A DNA stretch of 64,000 nt, taken from positions 6,158 to 70,157 of the forward strand of contig JBEGSF010000005.1 of assembly GCA_041180005.1 (NCBI GenBank). The letters are read 5' to 3'. The position numbers were made by a program, and so were the translations under genes. The notes below the pieces were generated by a model. It did no database searches and was not told the DNA's origin. It worked only from the letters and a program-made list of their open reading frames with translations. Positions 2,262 to 56,520 of this stretch are shown here, piece by piece. The stretch comes from Verrucomicrobiota bacterium. GTDB lineage: Bacteria > Verrucomicrobiota > Verrucomicrobiia > Opitutales > UBA953. Each line of letters begins with the position of its first letter. The first letter of the stretch is position 1.

Positions 2262-5200
2262 ATGTCCCTCCGTCGACTCATGCCGCTGGTCGCAGCGATG
2301 CTTTGCGCCGTTTCGGCCGTCGCCCAGACCATCGTCCCGGTGCCCTCGCCGGCGGACCGCCCGCCCGTCGCCACCGACGCCTGGTATCGCACCTGGGTGC
2401 GCGTCGACGATTCGTTCTTCACCAAGCACGAGCGCAACCTCTTCGAAGAATCGGTCGGCCTGCACTTTCGCGACCTTGTCGGATCACACGAGGCGTTCGT
2501 CAACGGCGTGAAGGTCGGCGCCGGCTCGGGTCGCGAGGTCTTCCGTCACAAGGTGCCGGTGGGCACGTTGAAGAAGGGCGAGTGGAACGAGGTCGTCTTC
2601 CGCGTCCGACATCCCGAAGGGAAGGGCGGCTTCTTCGGCGAGGCGCCGTTCATCATGAACTACTTCATGGAGTGCGTGCTCGAAGGGGTGTGGGAATATT
2701 CCGCGACGCCGCTCACGCCCGGTCCGGCCCTCAAGGCGCAGCCCGCTTCGTCGTCGTTCGCGAAGTTCCGCGAGTCAAACCGCGTCCTCGGCCGCGCCGA
2801 GCAGTTCCATGGTCCTTCGCTCTCCCCGGCCGAGGCTTATGCGAAGATGCGCGCGACGCCTGACCTGGCGGTCGACTTCCTGCTGTCCGAGCCGCAGATC
2901 GCCCAGCCGACGCACTTCAGCTTCGACACCCGCGGTCGCCTCTGGGTCACGCAATACCGCCAGTATCCTTACCCCGCCGGCGTCAACATGATCAGCCGCG
3001 ACAAGTATTACCGCTCGCATTACGACCGCGTCCCGCCTCCTCCGCCCCATCACGACAAGGGCGCCGACATCGTCTCCATCCACGAATCGACGAAGCGCGA
3101 CGGGGTCTACGACAAGCACACGGTCTTCCAGGATGGCCTCAACATGGCCAACTCGGCCGTCCGCGCCCACGGCGGCGTCTGGGTGATGAACCCGCCTTAC
3201 CTGCTGTTCTATCCGGACGCCAATGGCGACGACGTCCCTGACGGCCCGCCGGTGGTGCATCTCTCCGGCTTCGGCCTCGAAGACACCCACTCGGTGGGCA
3301 ATGGGATCATCCTGGGTCCCGACGGCTGGCTCTACGGCGTGCACGGCAGCACGTCGTCCTCGCGCGTCGTGCGTCCGGGCTTCGATTCCGCCGACGCCGC
3401 CCCCGTCCACTTCGAAGGCTGTATGGTCTGGCGCTACCACCCGAAGACCCGCGAATACGACATCTTCAGCGAAGGCTCGGGCAATCCCTTCGGCCTGGAG
3501 TTCGACGGCGACGGGCGCATGTATTCCGGCCACAACGGCGGCAACACCCGCGGCTGGCACTACGTCCAAGGCGGCATCTACCTCAAGCAGGGCGTCGACC
3601 CGGGCAAGTTCGGCCCGCCGCGCAGTCCGTATTCCTTCGGCCAGCTCCCGATCCTCGGCACGCGCACAAAGGTCCCACGCTTCGCGCATTTCGGCTCCTT
3701 CATCGAAGGCACGGCGATGGCCTCGAAATACCAGGGCCACCTGTTCTCCCTCGATCCGCTCCACAACACGGTCACCGACTCCGAGCGCATCCCGCAGGGC
3801 GCGACCTACGTGACGACCGACAAGGGCATCGCGATGTGGTCCGAGGACGTGGGCTTCCGTCCGCTCTACAGCGCGAACGCCCCCGACGGCTCGCTCTTCG
3901 TGTCCGATATGTATGAATATTACATCGCGCACGGGCAGCACTACCAGAACCAGATCGACCCCACGACGGGCCGCCTGTACCGCCTCCGCGACAAGGACGC
4001 CAGGCTCGAGACCGACACGAACCTCGAGGGCAAGACCACCGCCCAGCTCGTCGGCCTCCTCGGTCATCCGAACAAGTTCCACCGCACGGCTTCGCTGCAG
4101 CTGCTGTCCGAACGGCGCGATCCCGCTTCCGTCCCGCAGCTCGACGCCTTGCTCGCCGCCGACCGGGGCCGCGGCGCCTTGGGTGCGCTCTGGGCGCTGT
4201 ATCAGATCGACGCCCTCGACGATGCCCGCGCCGTCGCCGCGCTGACCCACGCCTATGCGCCGGTGCGTTTCTGGGCCATGCGTTTCCTCGGCGATAAATA
4301 CGGCGTCAACCGCGGCCTCGGCGTGCCCGGTCTTGATTCCAAGGGCTCCCGCGACCTGCCGCCTCAGGTCTTCGCGGCGGTGCTCGCCCGCGCCAAGACG
4401 GAGCCCGATGCCGAGGTCCGTTCCCAGTTTGCCTCGTCGGCCCGTCGTCTGCCGACCGGCCAGATGCTCACGCTCGTCGCGGCGCTCGCTGCGCGCGACG
4501 AGGATACGCAGGACGCCTATATTCCTTTGCTGCTCTGGTTCGCCTTGGAGTCCCACGTGAGCCTTGACCGTGACGCCGTCGTCGGCCTGCTCCGCGACCA
4601 CGCCCTGTGGGAGCGTCCGCTGGTGCAGGAACATCTGCTGCCTCGCCTGATGCGCCGCTTCGCCACCGAAGGACGCCGGGCCGATCTCCTGGTCTGCGCC
4701 CAGCTTCTGCGTCTCGCACCGACGCCGGCGCAGAGCGTGCCTTTGATGAAGGGCTTCGAGGAAGCCTACCGCGGACGCGAACTCGCCGGCCTGCCCGACG
4801 AACTGCTGCGGGCCCTGGCCGCCTCAGGCAAAGCCCCGCTCATCCTCCGCCTCCGCCAAGGGGATGCCGCGGCGATCAAGGAGTCGCTGGCGATCGTCGC
4901 GAATCCGAAGGCCGACGTCACCGAGCGGCTCAACCAGATCAGGGTCTTCGGCGAAGTCCGTCAGGACGCGGCTCAGGCCGTCCTGCTCAAGCTCGCCTCT
5001 TCGTCCGAGGCCGCGGCTTTGCGCAAGGCAGCTCTGATCTCGCTGATGTCTTATGACGACCCCGCCGTCGGCAAGCAGGCGGTGGGCATCGTCGCCGAGG
5101 GCGCGGGCGACGTGCGCCTCGCCGCATTGGCCTTGCTGGCCAGCCGCGCCGGGTGGTCGCAGGAGCTCCTGACAGCCGTGAAGGAAGGCCGCATCGCCCC

Positions 5201-5777
5201 CAACACCGTCCCGCGCGACATGGTCGAGCGCATGCGTCAGCACGAGCCGAAGCAGGTGCAGTCGCTCCTGGCCGAACTCTATCCGGAGAAGCCGGCCGCG
5301 GGCGTCACGGACTTCATCGCCCAGATCGCCGACGTGGAAGCCAAGCTCAAGGCGGGCACGGGTAATCCTTACGCCGGCGAGGCGCTCTTCATGGAGAAGT
5401 GCGCGTCGTGCCATAAGCTCTTCTTCAAGGGCGGGAAGATCGGTCCCGAACTCACGGCCTATCAGCGCGACAACCTCGGCACGATGCTCATCAGCATCGT
5501 CCATCCCAACGCCGAGATCCGCGAAGGCTTCCAGTATTTCTCGGTCACGACGCATGACGGCCGCTCGCTCAGCGGCTTCCTGGTCGAGCGCGACGCCCAG
5601 ATCCTCGTGCTGCGCGGACTGGAAGGGGAGGACATCACCGTCCGCCAGGCGGACGTCCGTCTGCTCACGCCGTTGGGACGCAGCCTCATGCCCGAGGGCT
5701 TGCTGACGGGCATGACTCCGCAGCAGCTGCGCGATCTCTTCGCTTACCTGCGGATCTCCCAGCCGATCAGCCGCTGA
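2262..5777 (+). CDS. PVC-type heme-binding protein: membrane-bound-dehydrogenase-like beta-propeller + HEAT repeats + C-terminal c-type cytochrome domain
   Basis: The real start is the ATG at 2262 (signal peptide MSLRRLMPLVAAMLCAVSAVAQ). The upstream 300 codons of ORF 1362..5777 are antisense to the ARH gene. C-terminal 'CASCHKLFFKGGKIGPELT' is a CxxCH motif. The architecture recalls the Pirellula/Verrucomicrobium-type heme-binding and dehydrogenase domains. Confidence 0.85.
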   Translation: MSLRRLMPLVAAMLCAVSAVAQTIVPVPSPADRPPVATDAWYRTWVRVDDSFFTKHERNLFEESVGLHFRDLVGSHEAFVNGVKVGAGSGREVFRHKVPVGTLKKGEWNEVVFRVRHPEGKGGFFGEAPFIMNYFMECVLEGVWEYSATPLTPGPALKAQPASSSFAKFRESNRVLGRAEQFHGPSLSPAEAYAKMRATPDLAVDFLLSEPQIAQPTHFSFDTRGRLWVTQYRQYPYPAGVNMISRDKYYRSHYDRVPPPPPHHDKGADIVSIHESTKRDGVYDKHTVFQDGLNMANSAVRAHGGVWVMNPPYLLFYPDANGDDVPDGPPVVHLSGFGLEDTHSVGNGIILGPDGWLYGVHGSTSSSRVVRPGFDSADAAPVHFEGCMVWRYHPKTREYDIFSEGSGNPFGLEFDGDGRMYSGHNGGNTRGWHYVQGGIYLKQGVDPGKFGPPRSPYSFGQLPILGTRTKVPRFAHFGSFIEGTAMASKYQGHLFSLDPLHNTVTDSERIPQGATYVTTDKGIAMWSEDVGFRPLYSANAPDGSLFVSDMYEYYIAHGQHYQNQIDPTTGRLYRLRDKDARLETDTNLEGKTTAQLVGLLGHPNKFHRTASLQLLSERRDPASVPQLDALLAADRGRGALGALWALYQIDALDDARAVAALTHAYAPVRFWAMRFLGDKYGVNRGLGVPGLDSKGSRDLPPQVFAAVLARAKTEPDAEVRSQFASSARRLPTGQMLTLVAALAARDEDTQDAYIPLLLWFALESHVSLDRDAVVGLLRDHALWERPLVQEHLLPRLMRRFATEGRRADLLVCAQLLRLAPTPAQSVPLMKGFEEAYRGRELAGLPDELLRALAASGKAPLILRLRQGDAAAIKESLAIVANPKADVTERLNQIRVFGEVRQDAAQAVLLKLASSSEAAALRKAALISLMSYDDPAVGKQAVGIVAEGAGDVRLAALALLASRAGWSQELLTAVKEGRIAPNTVPRDMVERMRQHEPKQVQSLLAELYPEKPAAGVTDFIAQIADVEAKLKAGTGNPYAGEALFMEKCASCHKLFFKGGKIGPELTAYQRDNLGTMLISIVHPNAEIREGFQYFSVTTHDGRSLSGFLVERDAQILVLRGLEGEDITVRQADVRLLTPLGRSLMPEGLLTGMTPQQLRDLFAYLRISQPISR

Positions 5778-5793
5778 ACAAGCGGCTTACCGT

Positions 5794-6351
5794 TCACATC
5801 AATCCCTGGGCGGGGATGACGGGAGCCGGGGCGGCCGGTGCCGGGGCGGGCTGGCCGGCGGCTTGGGTGGCATCGATCTTCTCGAGCTCCGCCTTGAGCA
5901 TGCCGAGGCCTTCGTCGCGGAGTGCGATCACCTGGCCCTCGAGCTGCGCGCGTTCTTCGTCCGTCTGGGCGTTGCGCATCGCCTCGCCGATCTCCCGGCC
6001 GCGCTTGAAGAGCTCCTGCGTGGCGGGGTTGATCATCCCGTTGCGGAAGGCCTGGCCGAGCTTCTTCTCGTCGCCGCCGGCGAGGTCGAGGGCCATCTTG
6101 CGGGTCTCTTCGCCGAAAGCCTTGTAGCGAGCCTTCGTGGCCTCGTCCATCGGCGGGCGCTTGGCCTGGGTCGGGGCGACGGGCTTAGGCGCCGCGACCT
6201 TGGTCGGCTGCGTGGCCGGCGTCGGAGCGGCGACGACGGGCTTTTCCACCTTGGTGACGTCCTCCAAGTCGGACGGACGGATGAAGCGGGCGATGAGGAA
6301 ACCTACCGCCACGCAGAAGGCGGCGGTGATGGCGACGGAGGTCTTGTTCAT
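5794..6351 (-). CDS. hypothetical membrane-anchored protein (N-terminal TM, Pro/Ala-rich linker, helical C-terminus)
   Basis: 185-aa ORF with an ATG start. TM segment 'VAITAAFCVAVGFLIARF'. No recognisable catalytic motif. Confidence 0.6.
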   Translation of the reverse strand: MNKTSVAITAAFCVAVGFLIARFIRPSDLEDVTKVEKPVVAAPTPATQPTKVAAPKPVAPTQAKRPPMDEATKARYKAFGEETRKMALDLAGGDEKKLGQAFRNGMINPATQELFKRGREIGEAMRNAQTDEERAQLEGQVIALRDEGLGMLKAELEKIDATQAAGQPAPAPAAPAPVIPAQGLM

Positions 6352-20725: not shown

Positions 20726-21838
20726 TCAAGGCGTCAGGCCCGCGGCGCGCAATGCCGTGGCGTGGACGTTGATGTCGTGGTCGGCCGACCAAGCGAACGG
20801 GGCGCCGTTGACGAGCACGCGGTGCAGGTCGCGGAATTCTTCGTCGTAGCGTCCTTTGGGGACATCCAGCGCGAAGGTGTTTTCACCCTTCTTGAAGCGG
20901 GGTTCGGCGAACATGATCATTTTATCGCCGACTTGTCGGCAGACCTTCGACGTGTCGCGAGGTTCGTCGAGCCGCAGGACGCCTTTGCCGGATTCGAGCG
21001 GGCGGATCTCCATGTCGCCCTTGGTGCCGCGGACGGAGATACAGCGATTAGGTCCGCCGAACGGGTCGGCATGGTTGCAGCGGATCGTCACGGTCGCCTT
21101 GGGGTAAGTGAGCACCGCGAGCTGGTTGTCGACGAAGGCATCCTGCGGGGCGCGGGTGGCGTTGCCGAAGGCTTGGACCGAGAGGGGCGGGCCCATCAGC
21201 GTCACGACCGTGTCCACGAGATGGCACGCGAGCTCATACATCCCGCCGCCGGGAATCTGGGCGAAACGCTTGCGTCCGGCTTCGTCGAGCAGCTTGCCCA
21301 TCGAGGCGTCGATTTCCATGACGTCCCCGAGCCAGCCTTCCTTGACCGCGCGGAACAGCAGCTGGATGCCGGGGTTGTAGCGTAGCATGTAGCCCATCTG
21401 GACGGTCAGGCCTTTTTCGGCGGCGTAGCGACGGAGCTCCACGAAGTCGGCGTGCTTTTCGGCGCCCGGTTTGTCCAGGTGGATGTGCTTGCCGGCTTTG
21501 AGCGCGGCGAAGGCCGCCCGCGCGGAGTCTTCGAGGGTCGTCTCGATGACGACCACGCGGATGGAAGGGTCGGCGAGGATCTCCGCTTCCGTCAGGTATT
21601 TCAGGCCGGCGAAGGATTTCGCCTTCTGCGCGCTCGCCTGGCGGGAGGCGATGGGCTCGGCGAAGCCGACGACGTCGTAAAGGTCGGGCAAGGAGCGAAG
21701 CGCGTCCATCTTGCCTGCGGCGTGGGCGTGCGAGGTGCCGATCTGGGCGACGCGGAGGCGTTCCTTGTTCTCGGCGGCGAGCAGGCCGGCGAACGGGGTC
21801 AAGGCGAGGCCAGTGAGGAGGGTGCGGCGGTGGATCAT
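20726..21838 (-). CDS. Gfo/Idh/MocA-family oxidoreductase with Tat-like signal
   Basis: 'MIHRRTLLTGLALTPFAGLLAA' and Rossmann 'RVAQIGTSHAHA'. The stop of the upstream gene overlaps by 4 nt. Confidence 0.8.
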   Translation of the reverse strand: MIHRRTLLTGLALTPFAGLLAAENKERLRVAQIGTSHAHAAGKMDALRSLPDLYDVVGFAEPIASRQASAQKAKSFAGLKYLTEAEILADPSIRVVVIETTLEDSARAAFAALKAGKHIHLDKPGAEKHADFVELRRYAAEKGLTVQMGYMLRYNPGIQLLFRAVKEGWLGDVMEIDASMGKLLDEAGRKRFAQIPGGGMYELACHLVDTVVTLMGPPLSVQAFGNATRAPQDAFVDNQLAVLTYPKATVTIRCNHADPFGGPNRCISVRGTKGDMEIRPLESGKGVLRLDEPRDTSKVCRQVGDKMIMFAEPRFKKGENTFALDVPKGRYDEEFRDLHRVLVNGAPFAWSADHDINVHATALRAAGLTP

Positions 21839-23931
21839 TTGAGGAGCCAGGTGGCGGCGGCGGTCTTCGCGTCGGTGCCGTCGACGTGCGGCGTGGCGGC
21901 AGGGAAGAGCGTGGCATTAGGTTCGCCGGCGACCCAGAGCGGCTGGGCGGAGGCGAGGCAGAGGAGGCCGGGGACATCGAGATACTTCGCGCCGCCGGGC
22001 AGGAACATCGGGTCGCGGTAATCGAGCAGCTGGCCGAAGCGGAAACCCTTCGTCTCGACGGCGGCCTTGGCGATGGCTCCGCCGGTCACGGCGCGGGCGG
22101 CGGCGGCGACCGGGCCCATCTGACCGAAGCCGGCCAGCGAGACCTTCTTCACGGCCGGCTGGGTGGCGTCGCGTTTCGAGAGCAGGTAGCTCGTGATGGT
22201 CATGACGTCGTGCACGCGCTGGGCGAAGAGCGCGTGGTTGTAGCCGAAGGTATAGGCCGGGACTTCGCGGGGACCGGCGACGACGCGGGTCTGCTTCAGC
22301 TTCTTGTCGTCCTGAAGGAAGAGATCGGCTGTGAGCACGCCGATGCCGCGGTCGATGAGTTCCTGCAGTTCGGGACGGATCGTGCCGTCGGGCAGGCGGG
22401 CGGATCCCTTGCCGGCGTCGTCGAGCCAGATCACCACCTCGCCGGTGGGATTGATCGGTTGCAGCCAATCGACCGTGACTTCTTCGCCGTAGGTCGAGTT
22501 GACCAGATGGCCCTGCGTGCGGAAGTGGGAGTCGCGCCATTGGGCGCTGGCGTCGGGGAACGAGATGGATCCCGCCTGGGCGTAGGACCGGCCGATGAGG
22601 GCTTCGACGGCCGGACGCAGGATCTGCTCACGACCTTCGGTGGTCTTCGCCGCGGCGAGCAGCTGCTGCTGGGCGTCGGCCTTCAGCCACTTGAGCAGGT
22701 TGCGTTCGAATTCCGGGTCGCCGGCCTTGGGCGCGGGGTGGGACTCATCCCACACGGTCAGCTTCTCCTTCGGCAGCGGCTGGTAGTCCCGTTCGATGAT
22801 CGGGGCTTCGAAGCCCAGTTTGAAGTGTTTGTTGAGCGCCGCGTAGAAGCCCGAACGGGTGACCGCGTTATAGTTGTGCGGGAAGTGTTCGCCGCGCTGG
22901 AGCGTCACGTAGTCCTTCTTGCCGTAGAGCTTGTACAGCGCCTGCAGGTCGGGGAAGCCCTTCGTCGCCATCTCCTTGGTCCAGTCGTTGGCGGTGTTCA
23001 TGCCTTGCGGCTTAGGCGCGAAGAGGGCCGCGATCTCGACGTTGCCGGAGTTCACGCGGAGCAGGGTGGCGTTCTCGCAGGTGCAGCCGCCTTGCATGGC
23101 CGTGCTCACCATCACCACGGGGTAGGACAGGGCGAGGCGAGGATCGGCCGCCGCCAGGAGCATCGTCTGGGTGCCGCCGCCGCTGGAGCCGGTAACGGCC
23201 AGGCGAGTCGGGTCGACCTCAGGCAGCGTCAACAGGAAGTCCACGCTGCGGATCGAGTTCAGGGTCTGGAGGCCCATCACGTTCTGGAGGTTGGCCTCGG
23301 CCTGCGGGCTGTAGAGTCCCCAGCCTTCGGTGCGGTTCATCTCGGCCCGCTGCTTCGCGAACTTATGGATGACCTCCGGCGAGAACTGCTTCGAGTCGGA
23401 GTCGCTGAGCGCGTCGATATGCCAGACCACGCAGCCCATGCGGGCGAGCTGGACGCACATCGATTGGAAGCGGGACTTGCCGCCCTGTTCGAAGCGCTCC
23501 TGGCCGGTCGCGATCTCCTCGCGGACGTATTTATCGGGTTGGATCAGGAAGCGCGCGTCGGTCCAGTGTCCGTGCGGGAAGATCACCGCCGGCACCTTGC
23601 CGGTGATATTCTTGGGGCGGTAGAGGTTGCCCGTGACGAAGAAGCCTGGCGCGCTTTCGAAATAGACCTTCTCGATCGTGTATTCGCCTTGGTCGATCTT
23701 CCCGTGGATGACCGCGTTGAGCGGCGTCTTGGTCGGCATCGGCCAGAGGCCTTGGGAGACCAGCAGCTGCCTGCGGACGAAATCACGGCGCGGCTCCCAT
23801 TCCTGGACGGACTTCGGGGCGGGGAAGGGGAAGTATCCGTTGAGGTCCTTGAGCGGGCCGAGGCGGGCGTCCTCCGCGTGGGCGAGGTTCAGCAGGCCTA
23901 AGGCCGCGAGGGCGAGCGTGGGGAGGCGCAT
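21835..23931 (-). CDS. secreted alpha/beta-hydrolase (acetyl-xylan-esterase / glucuronoyl-esterase-like)
   Basis: 698 aa, signal peptide, 'VTGSSGGGTQT' nucleophile elbow. The N-terminal region resembles PVC acetyl xylan esterase-like proteins. Confidence 0.7.
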   Translation of the reverse strand: MRLPTLALAALGLLNLAHAEDARLGPLKDLNGYFPFPAPKSVQEWEPRRDFVRRQLLVSQGLWPMPTKTPLNAVIHGKIDQGEYTIEKVYFESAPGFFVTGNLYRPKNITGKVPAVIFPHGHWTDARFLIQPDKYVREEIATGQERFEQGGKSRFQSMCVQLARMGCVVWHIDALSDSDSKQFSPEVIHKFAKQRAEMNRTEGWGLYSPQAEANLQNVMGLQTLNSIRSVDFLLTLPEVDPTRLAVTGSSGGGTQTMLLAAADPRLALSYPVVMVSTAMQGGCTCENATLLRVNSGNVEIAALFAPKPQGMNTANDWTKEMATKGFPDLQALYKLYGKKDYVTLQRGEHFPHNYNAVTRSGFYAALNKHFKLGFEAPIIERDYQPLPKEKLTVWDESHPAPKAGDPEFERNLLKWLKADAQQQLLAAAKTTEGREQILRPAVEALIGRSYAQAGSISFPDASAQWRDSHFRTQGHLVNSTYGEEVTVDWLQPINPTGEVVIWLDDAGKGSARLPDGTIRPELQELIDRGIGVLTADLFLQDDKKLKQTRVVAGPREVPAYTFGYNHALFAQRVHDVMTITSYLLSKRDATQPAVKKVSLAGFGQMGPVAAAARAVTGGAIAKAAVETKGFRFGQLLDYRDPMFLPGGAKYLDVPGLLCLASAQPLWVAGEPNATLFPAATPHVDGTDAKTAAATWLLK

Positions 23932-23959: not shown

Positions 23960-23978
23960 ATGGGAAATAAAAAGGCCG
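23960..23978. repeat. left 19-bp direct repeat ATGGGAAATAAAAAGGCCG bounding the low-G+C islet
   Basis: An identical 19-mer occurs at 26858-26876. Confidence 0.9.
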
Positions 23979-24105
23979 GGCTAAGTCAGACCCCCTCAGG
24001 ACGCCTTTTTCCTCGGTAGGGTCGGGACCGCGTCACGACATAGCCGCCTTTGGAAGGGGTGATTGCCTTCGCTCAATCTCCCGCCCGGTATGCATCAGTA
24101 ATCCC

Positions 24106-24322
24106 ACTCAGTCAACGGGGTCAGTCAGCTGCTCGATCAGACAGCGACTAAATTCGATAACAACACGTGATTAAAGTCACACTCCCAAGAAGGGGGCGGC
24201 CTGACCCCGTGCTCGAGCTCAATGTTAATCACGGAGGCCTTTCGAACAGCAGGCTCACCTGTTGACTCTTGTAGCAGGTTAATCATAACACTCAGCCACC
24301 CCCTTGAATGAGCCTCGCCGGA
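24106..24322 (+). repeat. copy A of a ~217-bp conserved leader/promoter module preceding islet ORF1
   Basis: About 90% identical to 25796-26011. It ends 27 nt before the ATG at 24349. Confidence 0.9.
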
Positions 24323-24348
24323 CCAAGAACGGAATTGTCCCACAACCC

Positions 24349-25707
24349 ATGAGTGCTCAAGTAAAACGCCTCACTATTGCGCTTGGAGTACTCATTGTTC
24401 TCATGGCTGGAATCTATCGGTGGAGCATGGCAAGGCAGGACGCGAAGCCTCAAACTATCGCTTCACATAAGCCACAGACGTCAAAGGCTAAGGGGCAACT
24501 TTCACCATCATCAAAACCAGCGCTGCTTCGGTATGATCCGCTTAAGGATCCAGGGATGAGCGCCGAGGCGGCGGCCATTTATTATCAGCGCAGAGAGCAA
24601 ATGATTAGGGAACAGCACGGCGATGGGCAAATTGAAAAACCACTTAAGGTTCTTGAGGGCAGGACAGGAACAAAGTCAGATCTTATTACTGCAATTGGTA
24701 GTGTCACGCGTAACGGTTCGGTACGAGCTATACCATATCTTTTGAAGTTATTAGAGCATCAAGAATTACTCGTAAGATGGAGCGCAGCAGAAGGCTTATG
24801 TTCATTCGGCGACAAGCGGGGCTTTGACTACATTCTTCAACATTACGGACTCGTTACCGGCGCCGACTGGGCATCAGTGTTCAACGATGTTTTTGTCCAA
24901 TATAAACCTCCTGGATACAATGATGCGTTGATCAAACTAATTTCAGAAGTTAAACGTGAGGATGAGGAGTCGCGGAAGCTTGCCGCTCTGGAAATCTCCA
25001 CGGTGTTGGCTGAGATGGGTGAGCCTGCTTCTCTCGATGTGCTGCTTCCCAACCTTAAGCAATACCCTCCGTTGAGCGCTGCTAGGGTGCTAGCCTTGCG
25101 CAATGTCAACGATCCGAGGGTGACTCGATTTGCGATGGAGCTCATGCAAAGCGGCAAAAGCAGCGCCGTAAAGCAGGCTGCTGTAATCGTCTTGGCCGCA
25201 CGAGGCGATCAAGCGGCCCAGACAAGCATTGTCGAAGCGGCGAAGAGACTCATTGATCTGCCGCAACCGCAGAACGCCGATGGCACATACAAGCCAGGGA
25301 TGAATCCGGGATCCGTAGGCGCTGTAACTCCCGCATGGGACAGTGATGCCATGCTCGCGCTAGAGCGAGGCATGGAGTTCGTTCCCGCTGCTCAAGCAGT
25401 GCCGGCGCTCAAGCAGATTGCCATTAGTGCGAACAACGTGCGCTTTAGTAAAATTGCTATCATAAGGCTTGCGAAGATCGGTAACGAAGCGGCTCGTGAT
25501 GCCCTTTGGGAAACGGCCCAGGCTTTACAGAAGAGAAACCGTGTTTTTGAAAGCTCTATCTTCACGGCTGCAGGACAGGCGCTAACGTTGTTTGATGACG
25601 AAACTTCGATGAGTATGGCCACAATTCTTTTTGGCGGTTACCAGTACGGTTTCGAGGAGGCTAAACTTATTTCGGAGTCCAAAGGATGGGATGGTTTGTT
25701 CAAATGA
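24349..25707 (+). CDS. HEAT-repeat protein with N-terminal TM anchor (islet ORF1)
   Basis: 'RLTIALGVLIVLMAGIY' TM segment. Repeated 'xxVRxxAAxxLxxxGDxRG'-like HEAT/PBS-lyase-type units. The ATG at 24349 is preferred over the TTG at 24304, which lies inside the repeat. Confidence 0.7.
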   Translation: MSAQVKRLTIALGVLIVLMAGIYRWSMARQDAKPQTIASHKPQTSKAKGQLSPSSKPALLRYDPLKDPGMSAEAAAIYYQRREQMIREQHGDGQIEKPLKVLEGRTGTKSDLITAIGSVTRNGSVRAIPYLLKLLEHQELLVRWSAAEGLCSFGDKRGFDYILQHYGLVTGADWASVFNDVFVQYKPPGYNDALIKLISEVKREDEESRKLAALEISTVLAEMGEPASLDVLLPNLKQYPPLSAARVLALRNVNDPRVTRFAMELMQSGKSSAVKQAAVIVLAARGDQAAQTSIVEAAKRLIDLPQPQNADGTYKPGMNPGSVGAVTPAWDSDAMLALERGMEFVPAAQAVPALKQIAISANNVRFSKIAIIRLAKIGNEAARDALWETAQALQKRNRVFESSIFTAAGQALTLFDDETSMSMATILFGGYQYGFEEAKLISESKGWDGLFK

Positions 25708-25795
25708 AGGTGACCCTGGCCTGACCCCCTAAAGTTTGACAGTTCATGACTGGAGTTCCGCATGCACCTGAATCCCAAGGACAAAACCCGAGGAG

Positions 25796-26011
25796 ACTCA
25801 GCCAACGGGGTCAGTCCGCTGCTCGTTCAGACAGCTATCAAATTCGATAATAACACGCGATTTACGTCACACTCCCAAGAAGGGGGCGGCCTGACCCCAG
25901 GTTCGAGCTCGATGTTAATCACGTCGGCCTGTCGAACAGCAGGCTCACCTGTTGACTCTTGTAGCGGGTTAATCATAACACTCAGCCACCCCTCAAGTGA
26001 GCCTCGCCGGA
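25796..26011 (+). repeat. copy B of the ~217-bp conserved leader/promoter module preceding islet ORF2
   Basis: It aligns end to end with 24106-24322 (about 20 mismatches, 1 indel). It ends 26 nt before the ATG at 26037. Confidence 0.9.
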
Positions 26012-26036
26012 TCGAGGCCGGCTTCACCTCGTCACT

Positions 26037-26732
26037 ATGAAAACTTTATTCAAAGTAATCGTTTTAATATATGTTTACATGGGGACTGTAACGGCTGCAG
26101 AGCCCATACCTTCCCTGAATCAAACCCGTCAAATAGATCTTTTGACGGCAGATAGTGGATGGATTTTAAGGATAAGACCGGATGGCTCGGCTCATCTCCA
26201 GTTCGGTTCACTGATGGAGGATGGCGCTAGATGTCCTGCCGGAACCTTCGCTTTTAGTGATGTATATGCTTTCTTGGTTCCTAAAATTAAGGAAAATAAT
26301 TCTGCAGGCGATGTTGCCGTTGCCATAGTTCCTGAAACGGCGACTTCCGTAACGTGCCAATATATCAATGAATTCGAAGCTAAGCCATTCTTCTTAAAGG
26401 CGCAGCAAACATGCATGCCAATTTGGGACAAGGTTCGATTTGACGAGCTGGTGCATAAATACCCCATCGAGTCAGAGTTCAGCTTGAGTAAGCCTGCCGA
26501 ACCGGGCGCATTACAGCCTAAAGCCTTGTCGCAAGAAACGCCCACACCGAAGCCGCAGCCCGAGGTGCAGCCTACAAAGTCAACGAAAGCCACTGTTACT
26601 TCAGCGACAACTATCATAGCCAAGGATACCGCGACCGAAGCTCCTACCGCAATAACGCCATGGAACATCATCATTGTGCTTTTTCTGGCGTCACTTGGCC
26701 TGCTGTGGTGGATTCTCAAGCGGCGTCGATGA
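26037..26732 (+). CDS. hypothetical secreted protein with Thr/Pro-rich linker and C-terminal TM + RRR tail (islet ORF2)
   Basis: Signal peptide 'MKTLFKVIVLIYVYMGTVTA'. C-terminus 'PWNIIIVLFLASLGLLWWILKRRR'. Low G+C. Confidence 0.65.
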   Translation: MKTLFKVIVLIYVYMGTVTAAEPIPSLNQTRQIDLLTADSGWILRIRPDGSAHLQFGSLMEDGARCPAGTFAFSDVYAFLVPKIKENNSAGDVAVAIVPETATSVTCQYINEFEAKPFFLKAQQTCMPIWDKVRFDELVHKYPIESEFSLSKPAEPGALQPKALSQETPTPKPQPEVQPTKSTKATVTSATTIIAKDTATEAPTAITPWNIIIVLFLASLGLLWWILKRRR

Positions 26733-26857
26733 CTTGGGATAGTCCAGCTTTTTGATCCAGCTGAATACGACTCTCGAGTTTTGATTCGGTCACGATAGCT
26801 GGGCCCGGCTGGAGTGCGGCGGGTCGGGCGCCTGACCGCCAAGTTGGTTCTGGTAAA

Positions 26858-26876
26858 ATGGGAAATAAAAAGGCCG
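26858..26876. repeat. right 19-bp direct repeat ATGGGAAATAAAAAGGCCG
   Basis: Identical to 23960-23978. It overlaps the terminator at 26861-26892. Confidence 0.9.
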
Positions 26877-26892
26877 ACCTTGCGGCCGGCCT
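26861..26892 (-). terminator. rho-independent terminator of gene 26914..27675
   Basis: Minus-strand RNA: AGGCCGGCC-GCAA-GGUCGGCCU (9-bp stem with one G.U, GNRA loop) followed by UUUUAUUU. Confidence 0.8.
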
Positions 26893-26913
26893 TCGTTACG
26901 GATGTTTCCGTGC

Positions 26914-27675
26914 TTATTCGGGCTGCTTGCGGTCGCGACGATTGTCACCCTGCGAGCGGCGCGGTTCGCCGGCCTTGCGCATCTTCTCGAAGAGCGGCGC
27001 GATCGAAGGGTCGGCCTGGCGGGCGACGTCCTCGGCGATCTCGATCGCCTTGCGCTGGGCCGCGGCGGCGGCTTCGCGGGCTTCGCGCACGGCAGGGTTT
27101 TCGTTGGCCTTGGCCATGGCTTCGCGGACGCGACGCTGTTCGTCGGGAGAAAGTCCGGGGATCACGCCAGGACGGTCGGGACCGGGCTCACGGACGTCGC
27201 CGCGAGGGCGATCGCCGTTCGGCTGATTCGGGCCACGGTCGCGAACGGGCTGGTTGGGCTGGCCTTCAGGACGGCGCGGCTGCTCGCCGCGAGGCTGCAC
27301 CTGCGGCTGGCGGTCCGGCTGTTCAGGCTGACGGCGCTCCATGGCCTTCTTGATTTTTTCCAGGATCGGGGCGACTTCCGGGTCGGCCTTGCGGGCGGCT
27401 TCGTCGGTGAGCTCGCGGGCCTTCTTCTGGGCCTCCATGGCGGCCTGCTGGGCTTTGGCCGCCTGTTCGTGGGCTTCCTTCACCGCGGGGTCCTGTTTGG
27501 CCTTCTCCATGGCTTCATGCAGGCGCTTCTGTTCGTCGGGGCTGAGTTGGACAGGTAGGCGCGGGTTGGGGCGACCTTCCGGGCCGGGGCCGTCGGGGCG
27601 GAACTGAGGGCGGGGGGCTTCTTCGGCGGCGAAGCCGAGGCTGGCGGCGAGGAGGAGCAGGGGCAGGTGCTTCAT
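26914..27675 (-). CDS. secreted helical repeat protein with two 'LSPDEQxR' units (possibly CpxP/Spy-like LTxxQ family)
   Basis: Signal peptide. Internal duplication: 'LSPDEQKRLHEAMEKAKQDPAVKEAHEQAAKAQ' versus 'LSPDEQRRVREAMAKANENPAVREAREAAAAAQ'. Arg/Pro/Gln-rich spacers. Confidence 0.65.
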   Translation of the reverse strand: MKHLPLLLLAASLGFAAEEAPRPQFRPDGPGPEGRPNPRLPVQLSPDEQKRLHEAMEKAKQDPAVKEAHEQAAKAQQAAMEAQKKARELTDEAARKADPEVAPILEKIKKAMERRQPEQPDRQPQVQPRGEQPRRPEGQPNQPVRDRGPNQPNGDRPRGDVREPGPDRPGVIPGLSPDEQRRVREAMAKANENPAVREAREAAAAAQRKAIEIAEDVARQADPSIAPLFEKMRKAGEPRRSQGDNRRDRKQPE

Positions 27676-41787: not shown

Positions 41788-41864
41788 TGGTGGTAGTGGG
41801 CAGGATCGAACTGCCGACCTAGGGCTTATGAGTCCCTCGCTCTAACCAACTGAGCTACACTACC
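41788..41864 (-). tRNA. tRNA with CAT anticodon (elongator Met or lysidine-modified Ile2), CCA encoded
   Basis: Minus strand: GGTAGTG-TA-GCTC-AGTTGGTT-AGAGC-G-AGGGA-CTCATAA-GCCCT-AGGTC-GGCAG-TTCGATC-CTGCC-CACTACC-A-CCA. The cloverleaf is intact and the G1:C72 pair argues against an initiator. Confidence 0.88.
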
Positions 41865-56110: not shown

Positions 56111-56148
56111 GGAGGGCCGAACGTTTCCGTTCGGCCCTCCGTCTTTTG
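56111..56148. terminator. strong hairpin terminator shared by convergent gltA (+) and rnpB (-)
   Basis: GGAGGGCCGAACG-TTTC-CGTTCGGCCCTCC is a 13-bp perfect stem, followed by GTCTTTT on the plus strand and CCCCCTTTG on the minus strand. Confidence 0.8.
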
Positions 56149-56520
56149 AGCCATACACTATAAGCCGGATTCTGTCCTTGGGCGGCTCTCGCCGATCCCC
56201 TGCGCGTTCATTTCTCTGACCTTGCGGACCCGCCTTGCGGCGGTGCGACAACCCGGGACCTTGGTGGGCGACCTCGGACGGTCCCTGTTCGTCTTGCACC
56301 GGATTGGGTTTACCTTGCCTCGTCGGTCACCCTTCGAGCGGTGGGCTCTTACCCCACCTTTTCACCCTTACCTCGTTCCTTGCGGAGGAGGCGGTATCTT
56401 CTCTGTGGCACTATCCGTCACGTCTTGCGACGCGCCCCGACTTGCGGCGGGAATCCTGCCCTGTGGTGTCCGGACTTTCCTCACGGATTGCTCCGTGCGA
56501 ACGCACATGTATGACTGTCC
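56145..56520 (-). ncRNA. rnpB: RNase P RNA, bacterial type A
   Basis: The minus strand contains GAGGAAAGUCCGG (56470-56482), GGUAAGGGUGAAAAGGUGGGGUAAGAGCCCACCG (about 56338-56375) and ACAGAAUCCGGCUUA (56161-56175). P1 pairs AGUCAUACAU (5-prime) with GUGUAUGGCU (3-prime). The ends are approximate, within about 5 nt. Confidence 0.9.

Follow-up and report, generated by a model that had tools for sequence, protein, structure and literature searches.

A non-autonomous low-G+C gene islet, flanked by a terminator-derived direct repeat, at a strain-variable insertion hot spot in freshwater Verrucomicrobiota

Main finding

A 2.9-kb low-G+C segment in the 64,000-nt stretch of DNA analysed here (the window) is a real, horizontally acquired gene islet, which consists of two cargo genes together with a small MITE and the remnants of a resident IS3-family insertion sequence (IS), and which is non-autonomous. 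The site that it occupies is a strain-variable insertion hot spot in the freshwater Verrucomicrobiota chromosome, where the flanking genes are conserved, the accessory content varies from strain to strain and empty alleles are present. Taken as a whole, we favour at a probability of roughly 0.5 a history in which the cargo of such a non-autonomous islet was swapped by recombination at IS and MITE modules, and in which the 19-bp direct repeat at its borders is a recombination joint.

Composition and layout

A sequence-only reading of the window had singled out the enclosed DNA as visibly AT-richer than its surroundings, and the composition analyses agree: its G+C content is 51.4% vs 67.1% in the remaining window, GC3 is 0.47-0.50 for the islet genes vs 0.80-0.89 for neighbouring genes, and its tetranucleotide deviation is the highest of the whole window (z = 5.6). 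The features are collected in Table 1. The esterase-like gene on the left, whose start codon is 28 nt away from the left repeat, adjoins the site and is conserved in all relatives. Module X marks the left end of the island in several variants whose cargo differs and is conserved among them, and module S was also found 3' of a 76%-identical ORF1 homologue in L091. The mobile-element remnants comprise a direct repeat of ~230 bp (24106-24332 and 25796-26021; about 90% identical), one copy of which stands ahead of each ORF, and the 109 nt that follow ORF2.

Table 1. Features of the islet and its borders (window coordinates).
Feature	Position	Strand	Description
Left flanking host gene	21835..23931	-	698-aa esterase-like protein; weak AXE1 match
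Left direct repeat copy (DR-L)	23960..23978	+	terminator 3' half-stem and T-tract, without the 5' half-stem
Module X	23979..24105	+	127 nt, non-coding; both ends homologous to module S
Leader 1, 5' part	24106..24231	+	~96-nt palindromic MITE copy; terminal inverted repeats at 24115-24129 and 24196-24210
Leader 1, 3' part (B1)	24232..24343	+	last ~112 nt of a 1350-bp IS3-family IS
uORF	24308..24352	+	14 codons (MSLAGPRTELSHNP, stop); starts within the IS right-end remnant
ORF1	24349..25707	+	452 aa; N-terminal TM helix and HEAT repeats; G+C 51%, GC3 0.50
Module S	25708..25795	+	3' flank of ORF1; travels with ORF1
Leader 2, 5' part	25796..25921	+	second MITE copy; termini at 25805-25819 and 25886-25900
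Leader 2, 3' part (B2)	25922..26036	+	second IS3 right-end remnant; decayed tip; orfB tail 25925-25969
ORF2	26037..26732	+	231 aa; signal peptide, Pro/Thr-rich linker, C-terminal TM helix then KRRR
E-L	26735..26843	+	IS-left-end-like remnant (TGGGATAGTCC...); first ~46 nt resemble the IRL of the IS
Filler	26844..26857	+	14 nt (TTGGTTCTGGTAAA); like spacer alleles left of the 19-mer in other lineages
Right direct repeat copy	26858..26876	+	
Intrinsic terminator of gene 26914-27675	26860..26894	-	hairpin 26894 to 26869 and T-tract
Right flanking host gene (g253)	26914..27675	-	253-aa secreted, internally repetitive, charged protein

Within the islet we found no intact transposase or integrase gene, as had been claimed, and the view of a non-autonomous element is supported. 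The statement that signs of a transposase and of terminal inverted repeats are missing stands for the ends of the islet, where no inverted repeat pairs 23979... with ...26857, but not for its interior, which carries many mobile-element scars (two remnants of the IS3 right end, one that resembles the IS left end, and two copies of the MITE).

Cargo genes

The two ORFs described beforehand as a HEAT-repeat TM protein and a small secreted protein were both confirmed by domain and signal analysis. ORF1 matches HEAT_2 with E = 1.4e-16, and Pfam, NCBIfam and PADLOC return only generic HEAT repeats as to its function; ORF2, with a G+C content of 48%, has no match in the same three collections. No Shine-Dalgarno sequence precedes ORF1, and the TGA of the short upstream uORF overlaps its ATG (ATGA), an arrangement in which translational coupling of the two would be possible. 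An intact IS end holds the same outward-reading ATG as the uORF, and a sigma-70 scan detected no promoter in the IS end. Expression signals for the cargo genes are probably supplied by the retained IS right ends. No relatives of the islet were found in plasmid and phage records, nor any relatives of the leader in viral contigs.

The parent IS and its remnants

The core of the leader is common to 72 metagenome loci, where it mostly forms the end of a 1350-bp element, whose 3' end was taken as ...ATCCCA. This parent IS is bounded by TG...CA, and its terminal inverted repeats are imperfect (IRL TGGGATAGTGCCGCTTTTTTGGTCCAG; IRR, reverse-complemented, TGGGATAAAACCGTTTTTGGTCCAG). Its OrfA matches HTH_Tnp_1 (E = 1.4e-11) and its OrfB matches rve (E = 7.7e-19), rve_3 (E = 6.8e-20) and HTH_21, the frame of orfB relative to orfA fitting a -1 shift. 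The composition of the IS is host-like (G+C 65%, GC3 0.87), and L073 holds a head-to-tail IS junction of the form IRR-GGGC-IRL. In four loci (L068, L072, L059 and L094) full IS copies stand in for the leader remnant directly 5' of ORF1. IS3-family elements make target duplications of 3-4 bp; no matching flanks of that size were found next to 10 full copies, on metagenome contigs that may be chimeric, and the left and right flanks of full copies are shuffled between contigs, which could reflect either recombination or assembly chimeras.

No intact IS copy is present in the window. The IS end was matched by nhmmer and blastn at 24232-24343 and 25922-26036, and the orfB tail was found by tblastn at 24235-24279 and 25925-25969. 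B1 holds the last 15 orfB codons (24235-24279), the stop codon (24280-24282) and the right terminus ...GTCCCA, and ends 5 nt ahead of the ORF1 ATG. Ahead of varied cargo genes, IS remnants show four 5' truncation points (IS positions 1202, 1216, 1241 and 1248) and all retain the terminal 100-150 nt. Modules of the E-L type, ~110-185 nt long, also lie 3' of other cassette ORFs in relatives. The MITE that forms the 5' part of each leader is non-coding, ~96 nt long with 15-nt termini (in leader 1, ACGGGGTCAG... / ...CTGACCCCGT), and occurs in many copies in differing contexts, with paired termini about 80 nt apart in many unrelated loci; paired copies were seen in L019 (x2), L038, L066, L069, L091 (x2), L103 and the window (x2).

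Several other identities of these sequences were considered and set aside. Since the leader proved to be a MITE joined to an IS end, its reading as a structured RNA or riboswitch was dropped; it has no Rfam match at gathering or permissive thresholds, and its folding z is only -2 to -3. An attC site (AGTCAAC ... GTTGACT) was rejected because conservation runs 75 nt past that motif to the IS terminus and includes transposase codons, and a MIC or MITE with passenger genes because the IS termini point at the ORFs, not at the chromosome. The putative recombinase site CCTGACCCC proved to be the MITE terminus.

The direct repeat and the terminator

The perfect 19-bp direct repeats that had been reported at the borders are confirmed: a search of the whole window gave ATGGGAAATAAAAAGGCCG exactly twice, with no further copies when up to 3 mismatches were allowed, and 100 shuffles of the sequence gave 0 matches. 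The neighbouring bases are unlike at the two copies (g/a before, g/a after), and hence the perfect repeat is exactly 19 bp long. As also claimed, the right copy corresponds to a half-stem and U-tract, being overlapped by the minus-strand terminator of gene 26914-27675, whose stem (26894 to 26869) has 11 pairs and is followed by TTTTTATTT. Rfam matches at the terminator are weak and reflect terminator shape only. Nor is the 19-mer a common repeat: in the window and ~600 kb of related loci it is confined to the present locus, where it is identical across all lineages, including empty-site lineages that are 12-15% diverged. The likeness of the filler to spacer alleles is suggestive, on very few bases, of an original duplication that may have exceeded 19 bp. 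A literature search on 19-bp repeats at terminators gave nothing usable.

Empty sites and alternative alleles

The search for unoccupied alleles succeeded. L083-L090 carry a single 19-mer in an 83-bp spacer between terminator and start codon, and the predicted effect of deleting 23979-26876, a simple spacer between the host genes, reproduces precisely this arrangement. The two lineages with an empty site, one of them the most distant of the sample (83% protein identity), have this simple spacer in common. Relatives with an empty site, together with the foreign composition, bear out the claim of a genuine insertion. A Logan contig with an identical g253 protein (L002) stops inside the terminator stem and is uninformative on occupancy.

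Between the same flanks, cargo takes many forms: ORF1 and ORF2 (the window, L013, L068, L072), ORF2 only (L035, L044, L047, L054), a 339-aa ORF (L017, L046, L052), a three-cassette array (L093, L095, L096), IS fragments (L079) and, with the same X+MITE left-end module, an 8-kb island with Sel1/TPR genes and a type I restriction-modification system (L101/L103); the cargo of related genomes includes other secreted-protein genes besides ORF2. The comparison loci are mostly short metagenome contigs in which a 1.35-kb multi-copy IS can produce chimeric assemblies, and some of these arrangements may be artefacts. At the left border the succession of repeat, X and MITE is often identical among variants, and the DR-X junction of the window recurs in L005, L077 and L093. 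The contig of L103 ends inside module X, short of the left repeat and the esterase gene, and the part of the 8-kb island that it covers has no recombinase among its called genes. To the left of the right repeat the sequence varies, being E-L and filler, IS positions 3-95 plus 9 nt, or IS positions 1-299 plus 122 nt. L049 was left out of the junction analysis; the right side of its cassette joins another chromosomal region, by rearrangement or as a chimera.

Age and length of the duplication

The insertion had been thought recent, a view that the comparison contradicts. The islet occupies one and the same position in several lineages that differ by 4-6% in the flanks and to a comparable degree within the islet. 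As the 19-mer is invariant even at 12-15% divergence, its perfect identity is no sign of recency, and the comparison of lineages indicates that its perfection is a matter of terminator conservation rather than youth. Where the repeated sequence is itself conserved, a perfect flanking repeat does not have to stem from a recent event or from a recombinase.

The length of the duplication is not fixed. It is 19 bp in the window vs about 100 bp in L077, L093, L095 and L096, where the direct repeat, the terminator and 44 nt of g253 recur internally; in L093/L077 the internal copy is the L035/L047 allele and the right-hand copy the L017 allele. An allele scan of the right flank found, at the 3' end of g253, a patch of ~45 nt of other lineage origin, which by itself leaves the mechanism undecided. 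Varying length and different alleles fit recombination between lineages better than a recombinase with a fixed core. The further suggestion of a site-specific insertion or cassette capture is not borne out either, given that there is no recombinase here or in the sequenced part of the 8-kb island, that the duplication measures 19 bp in one variant and ~100 bp in another, and that the leader repeat is not attC. No support for a dedicated site-specific recombinase emerged, although one may have been involved.

Origin of the islet

The accessory islet sits directly downstream of the g253 terminator as a unit of two low-G+C envelope- or secreted-protein genes, each behind a composite leader of MITE and IS3 right end, and the comparison of variants shows that cargo at this site is exchanged and rearranged by recombination between IS/MITE modules and conserved flanking genes. 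The 19-bp direct repeat is a true target duplication and, we propose, most likely a recombination joint, produced either by one homologous crossover and one illegitimate join or by Campbell-type integration of DNA that already held a copy of the terminator region; an origin through a site-specific recombinase or a transposase appears less likely. The repeat stayed perfect because the 19-mer is conserved in all lineages. Among the fetched loci we found no donor or circular junction for the duplication step, and the placement of the DR-X junction at the same nucleotide in several variants fits a recombinase or a single ancestral joint equally.

The two 19-mers could also be attL and attR of a CIME- or IME-like element, for which a tyrosine or serine recombinase encoded elsewhere joined attP, with a 19-bp core, to a chromosomal attB at the terminator, the cargo turning over later. 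Such a history would account for the perfection of the 19-bp repeat and its single copy in empty sites, for an identical DR-X junction and a conserved X+MITE 'arm' despite very different cargo, and for the arrays of repeat, cassette and repeat in L077 and L093, which resemble tandem accretion. However, neither the islet nor the L103-covered part of the 8-kb island contains a recombinase, the internal repeat of L093/L077 is about 100 bp long with copies that are different alleles, the sequences left of the right-hand repeat are unlike between variants, and an attP-like junction occurs in none of the fetched loci, and we regard this reading as doubtful, if worth keeping in view. Occupancy could instead be ancestral, with empty sites arising as deletions between two similar terminators; direct repeats promote deletion, and in L017/L049 the left repeat is like a diverged complete terminator after a minus-strand gene remnant. 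The enclosed DNA is, however, strongly foreign in composition and laden with IS sequence, the simple spacer is common to both empty-site lineages, the most distant included, and the content between the repeats is wholly different among occupied lineages, which together make ancestral occupancy quite improbable.

Transposition with a staggered target cut, leaving a 19-bp target-site duplication, is disfavoured and has very little to recommend it: a direct repeat of target sequence does flank an insert with IS-derived sequence inside, but the islet ends lack inverted repeats, the IS termini point to the ORFs and not to the chromosome, the duplications of the IS3 family are established to be 3-4 bp, and the duplication length differs among variants. 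The idea of an integron-like cassette array (CALIN) with the leader as attC is largely refuted. It drew on single-ORF units parted by a conserved repeat with internal inverted repeats, and on at least 9 distinct low-G+C segments, 0.86-1.8 kb long, that have an IS right end on one side and an IS left end on the other; in the majority, the longest ORF runs in the direction of the IS and its product has a signal peptide. The single-ORF regularity is due in part to ascertainment, since the contigs are short. The repeat itself, however, is a MITE plus the IS3 transposase coding tail and terminus, conserved up to the IS tip ...CCCA rather than to a GTTRRRY core; it matched none of the Rfam or attC-like families, and no IntI was seen.

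Recombination at IS/MITE modules might be part of something broader, although we consider this extension rather unlikely, namely a cassette-exchange system based on the IS3-family element and its end remnants and circulating in freshwater Verrucomicrobiota. Its units may be low-G+C genes, mostly single secreted-protein genes, with an IS right end 5' and an IS-left-end module 3'; they may reach a small number of chromosomal hot spots through IS/MITE-module recombination, and the retained IS right end may act as a portable promoter and translation-start leader. If true, integron cassettes and IS26 translocatable units would have a functional analogue on an IS3-family scaffold, and gene shuffling by integrons and IS26 an IS3-based counterpart.

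Relation to known systems

The islet represents a well-documented, fairly ordinary kind of genome plasticity. As in integration hot spots and flexible islets, the conserved esterase gene and g253 enclose strain-specific low-G+C content, with empty alleles, surface and secreted proteins, type I restriction-modification in one relative, and IS and MITE debris; unlike them, the islet here is very small (2.9 kb), is flanked by a terminator duplication and has a left module (19-mer, X, MITE) that is conserved across unrelated cargo. The parent IS agrees with the IS3 family in its 1350-bp length (about 1.2-1.55 kb in the family), TG...CA ends, orfA HTH and orfB rve domains, and in the IRR-4 bp-IRL head-to-tail junction, as made by copy-out-paste-in elements, and its reading frames would fit the -1 placement of orfB. 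All that survives in the window is two copies of the last ~112 nt and 109 nt resembling the left end. IS3-family ends can drive neighbouring genes.

Similarly to IS26 pseudo-compound transposons and translocatable units, directly oriented IS copies or remnants bracket short, mostly single-gene segments in the order IRR - ORF - IRL (B2 - ORF2 - E-L in the window, and the at least 9 other distinct inter-IS segments), in varied combinations and orders at one locus. In contrast to them, the IS belongs to the IS3 and not the IS6 family, most copies are reduced to end fragments, and there is no evidence here of conservative IS-targeted transposition, homologous recombination between IS copies being sufficient. 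With CIMEs and integrase-less islets the locus shares flanking direct repeats, of which the empty site has one copy, and the lack of a recombinase inside, but here the repeat length varies, the copies can be different alleles, no conserved right-side arm exists and a cognate integrase is not known. Illegitimate recombination facilitated by homology, a process described from transformation experiments in other phyla, likewise has one side anchored in conserved flanking genes, the other joined non-homologously, and short duplications with donor and recipient copies, as in the ~100-bp repeat of L093/L077; here, unlike in those experiments, it would be a reading of sequence mosaics.

At this locus the empty site, the occupied site and many alternative alleles are all documented, which gives a fully resolved natural case of a tiny intergenic hot spot in an uncultured freshwater Verrucomicrobiota lineage that gains and swaps envelope-protein and defence genes. 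Because of the IS and MITE repeats, assemblies break at this locus, and the IS3-family IS, apparently undescribed, and the 96-nt MITE documented here are useful for annotating these genomes.

An accessory islet between an esterase-like gene and g253

Comparison with related loci indicates that the low-G+C segment at 23979-26857 is an accessory islet with clear limits, located at an integration hot spot and built from an IS3-family insertion sequence (IS), a MITE and exchangeable cargo genes. Between its two flanking 19-mer copies (23960-23978 and 26858-26876) G+C is 51.4%, as against 67.1% in the remaining window, GC3 is 0.47-0.50 in the islet genes and 0.80-0.89 in the neighbour genes, and the tetranucleotide profile marks the islet as the most deviant 2.9-kb stretch in the window (z = 5.6); all three measures agree with the sequence-only reading, in which this DNA was AT-richer than everything else. 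The HEAT-repeat TM protein and the small secreted protein described there are both real, the latter (ORF2) with no family match in protein-family searches, and an envelope location is predicted for the cargo proteins. The esterase-like gene on the left (21835-23931, minus strand) is preceded by a strong Shine-Dalgarno sequence; both ORF1 and ORF2 lack one.

Features of the window and MITE copies in related contigs
Feature	Position	Strand	Remarks
MITE parts of leaders 1 and 2	24106-24231, 25796-25921		~96-nt palindromic element, termini ACGGGGTCAGGCCGC/GCGGCCTGACCCCGT; MITE copies at 24115-24210 and 25805-25900
B1	24232-24343		3' part of leader 1; IS right end including last 15 transposase codons
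ORF1	24349-25707		452 aa; N-terminal TM segment, HEAT repeats
B2	25922-26036		3' part of leader 2; IS right end including last 15 transposase codons
ORF2	26037-26732		231 aa; signal peptide, C-terminal anchor
E-L	26735-26843		TGGGATAGTCC..., directly 3' of ORF2 stop codon; first ~46 nt resemble IS left end
tRNA-Met gene	41788-41864	-	ordinary housekeeping; no island attached in the stretch looked at
RNase P RNA class A, bacterial	56145-56516	-	213.8 bits; ordinary housekeeping
MITE copies, related contigs	L019 1638-1732, 2757-2852; L038 165-259; L091 5486-5592, 7899-8005; L103 9878-9974		

The 19-mer (ATGGGAAATAAAAAGGCCG) matches the window only at these two positions, even with up to three mismatches allowed, and none of 100 shuffles gave two matches. 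Since the bases adjoining the two copies differ, the perfect repeat is exactly 19 bp long. On the minus strand, a terminator (hairpin 26894->26869, 11 pairs) follows the stop codon of the right-hand gene g253 (26914-27675, minus strand) at a distance of 20 nt. The right 19-mer copy is made up of its T-tract and the 3' half of its stem, which bears out the proposal that the repeat duplicates half of the g253 terminator. It is not a common terminator-associated repeat, as it was found at this locus only in the window and about 600 kb of related loci.

A 25-mer derived from the leader matched a river Verrucomicrobiota MAG (L005), which has the same junction of esterase gene, 19-mer and module X (23979-24105) as the window and whose contig stops within ORF1. 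Homologues of g253 are plentiful in freshwater metagenomes, and two lineages have an empty site (contigs L085-L090, g253 protein 92% identical; L083 and L084, 83% identical). In all of these the esterase gene starts 83 bp past g253, and the spacer (...TAAGCACGGAAACATCCGTAACGAAGGCCGACCGCAGGGTCGGCCTTTTTATTTCCCAT TCAACGCC...ATG) holds the terminator and one 19-mer copy, exactly the simple spacer that deletion of 23979-26876 had been expected to restore. Hence, some relatives do not carry the segment, and since the empty site equals the predicted deletion product, the islet is, on this comparison, an insertion duplicating its target sequence. The comparative evidence comes mostly from short metagenome contigs, in which chimeras are possible across the 1.35-kb repeat described below; the empty site, the allele with ORF2 only and the array in L093 are each backed by several independent contigs. 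A Logan contig with an identical g253 protein (L002, 5033-5064) stops inside the terminator stem (…GAAGGCCGGCCG), and several further assemblies likewise break off here or at the IS end, a pattern consistent with assembly breaks caused by repeats.

The suggestion that the insertion is recent did not hold. In occupied relatives the flanks are 3-6% and the islet a comparable 2-8% diverged from the window (ORF1 97.6% identical, ORF2 92-98.6%), so that the islet, judged by these distances, is diverging and recombining along with its hosts. Moreover, no lineage shows any change in the 19-mer, not even the empty-site ones with flanks diverged by 12-15%; the perfection of the repeat thus reflects sequence conservation.

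Mobile-element modules and cargo expression

Just upstream of each ORF lies one copy of a ~230-bp direct repeat (24106-24332 and 25796-26021, about 90% identical) with no Rfam match. A 20-mer from its most conserved part matched 72 metagenome loci; at many of them the contig terminates at the element, as expected of a multi-copy repeat, and most share only the 3' ~112 nt, preceded by coding sequence (...HNYDDIQVAMDDWLLDYNRYRPHGSLGLMTPDEFAGKPVDRRAHLLTLVAG*). Contig comparison bounds an element of 1350 bp with termini TGGGATAG...TATCCCA, which is, by its domain matches, an IS3-family IS: OrfA matches HTH_Tnp_1, and OrfB, in the -1 frame, matches HTH_21, rve and rve_3. Its composition is host-like (65% G+C, GC3 0.87), unlike that of the cargo. 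In contig L073 (123-127) two IS ends are joined head-to-tail as IRR-GGGC-IRL (…TTTTATCCCA GGGC TGGGATAGTACC…), the arrangement that marks a circle or tandem dimer of IS3 type; this suggests that the IS is active. Many near-identical copies occur in freshwater Verrucomicrobiota contigs (L040, about 4677-6026 on the IS-forward strand; L026, L065, L050, L009 and others). No 3-4-bp target duplications are visible at full copies in the metagenome contigs, and the pairing of left and right flanks changes from contig to contig, by recombination or as assembly chimeras.

The paired MITE termini recur across many unrelated contexts. Members of this family (~96-107 nt) are palindromic, with conserved 15-nt termini and a variable interior, and frequently adjoin IS fragments. 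The E-L module, ~110-185 nt long, also trails several other cassette ORFs. There is no intact transposase within the window, and the islet ends without terminal inverted repeats, the IS termini pointing at the ORFs. The earlier statement that the islet lacks a transposase and inverted repeats is therefore literally correct, but it missed the mosaic of mobile-element scars that makes up the islet.

IS remnants before different cargo genes have four different 5' truncation positions, and the terminal 100-150 nt are always kept. The gap to the start codon is 5 nt for ORF1 and 7 nt for ORF2 in the ORF2-only contig L035; the remnant holds an outward-reading ATG, which in B1 opens a 14-codon uORF with a stop overlapping the ORF1 ATG. 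IS3-family ends can activate neighbouring genes. We infer that the leaders may provide IS-derived expression signals for cargo genes without their own ribosome-binding sites; a sigma-70 scan of the IS-end leaders found no consensus promoter.

Alternative content at the same site

Judged by its relatives, the site is a hot spot, at which the same flanking gene pair encloses differing content: ORF1 and ORF2 (window, L013, L068, L072); ORF2 alone (L035, L044, L047, L054), the starts of the repeat copies being 1081 bp apart; an unrelated secreted protein of 339 aa, whose flanking repeat copies have diverged (L017, L046, L052); an array of three cassettes (the 16-kb contig L093, also L095 and L096); IS fragments (L079); or, in L101/L103, an island of 8 kb that encodes Sel1/TPR proteins together with a complete type I restriction-modification system. 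This island, downstream of g253 (L103 2255-9853, equal to L101; HsdM, HsdS and HsdR), terminates in a MITE and module X, the same modules that form the left end of the window islet. In L068, L072, L059 and L094 a full IS immediately precedes ORF1, at the position that only a remnant occupies in the window. A 76% identical ORF1 homologue occupies another chromosomal site in L091 (5459-8005, GCA_974660135.1), between sulfatase and pseudouridine synthase genes and between direct repeats of an IS 5' piece plus MITE spaced 2413 bp.

At least nine further distinct segments of 0.86-1.8 kb, all of low G+C (0.47-0.55), are bounded by an IS right end on one side and an IS left end on the other. In most of them the longest ORF specifies a signal-peptide protein and runs in the same direction as the IS (in one it is on the opposite strand); part of this single-ORF regularity comes from ascertainment, the contigs being short. 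In L022 (about 1230-2960, IS-end-forward strand) a 575-aa ORF directly 3' of the IS right end may be a candidate defence gene. Minus-strand genes or remnants adjoin the IS right-end remnant in L016, L027, L039, L045, L066, L091 (5350-5450) and the window-type variant L035 (124-256, module Y). They end in a hydrophobic C-terminal anchor and basic tail (…LLIALGVIAVLLLRKRG), similar to the ORF2 tail (…LGLLWWILKRRR), which may be a shared sorting signal among cassette proteins.

The islet shows likeness to flexible genomic islets and, in geometry, to IS26-type arrays. Tests of it as an integron array, as a transposon with target duplication and as an integrase-bearing element were negative. The IS and the MITE appear to be undescribed; the kind of feature is already known.

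Origin of the repeat

We tentatively favour the 19-bp repeat being a recombination joint (probability about 0.4). In L077, L093, L095 and L096 an internal copy of about 100 bp spans the 19-mer, the terminator and the final 44 nt of g253. Its allele is that of the L035/L047 lineage, whereas both the right-hand copy and the gene body carry the L017 allele. Such a two-allele duplication results when a homologous event and an illegitimate one together link DNA of one lineage to that of another. The main rival, a site-specific recombinase acting in trans, would account for the identical 19-mer|X junction in several variants, but one ancestral joint would account for it too. Neither the window islet nor the portion of the L103 island covered by its contig, which ends inside module X, encodes a recombinase; together with the lack of inverted repeats and the inconstant duplication, this argues against a fixed-core recombinase or transposase. 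IS3 elements make target duplications of 3-4 bp. We consider a trans-acting recombinase less likely than a recombination joint.

Other observations agree with such a joint. The original duplication may have been longer than 19 bp, because the 9-14 nt left of the right-hand repeat, which vary among variants, resemble spacer alleles of other lineages (for example, TTGGCGATTGATGA in L017 and TTGGCGTTGA at empty sites). Both ends of module X show homology to S, the segment that travels with ORF1 on its 3' side; this suggests that the 19-mer|X joint truncated a formerly larger island. Two sharply distinct alleles of the last ~45 nt of g253 occur among the lineages, and the gene in the window carries at its 3' end a ~45-nt patch of another allele, mismatching the rest of the gene. 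The g253 protein is secreted and highly charged, with two internal repeats (gene DNA about 68-234 and 440-627 cross-match).
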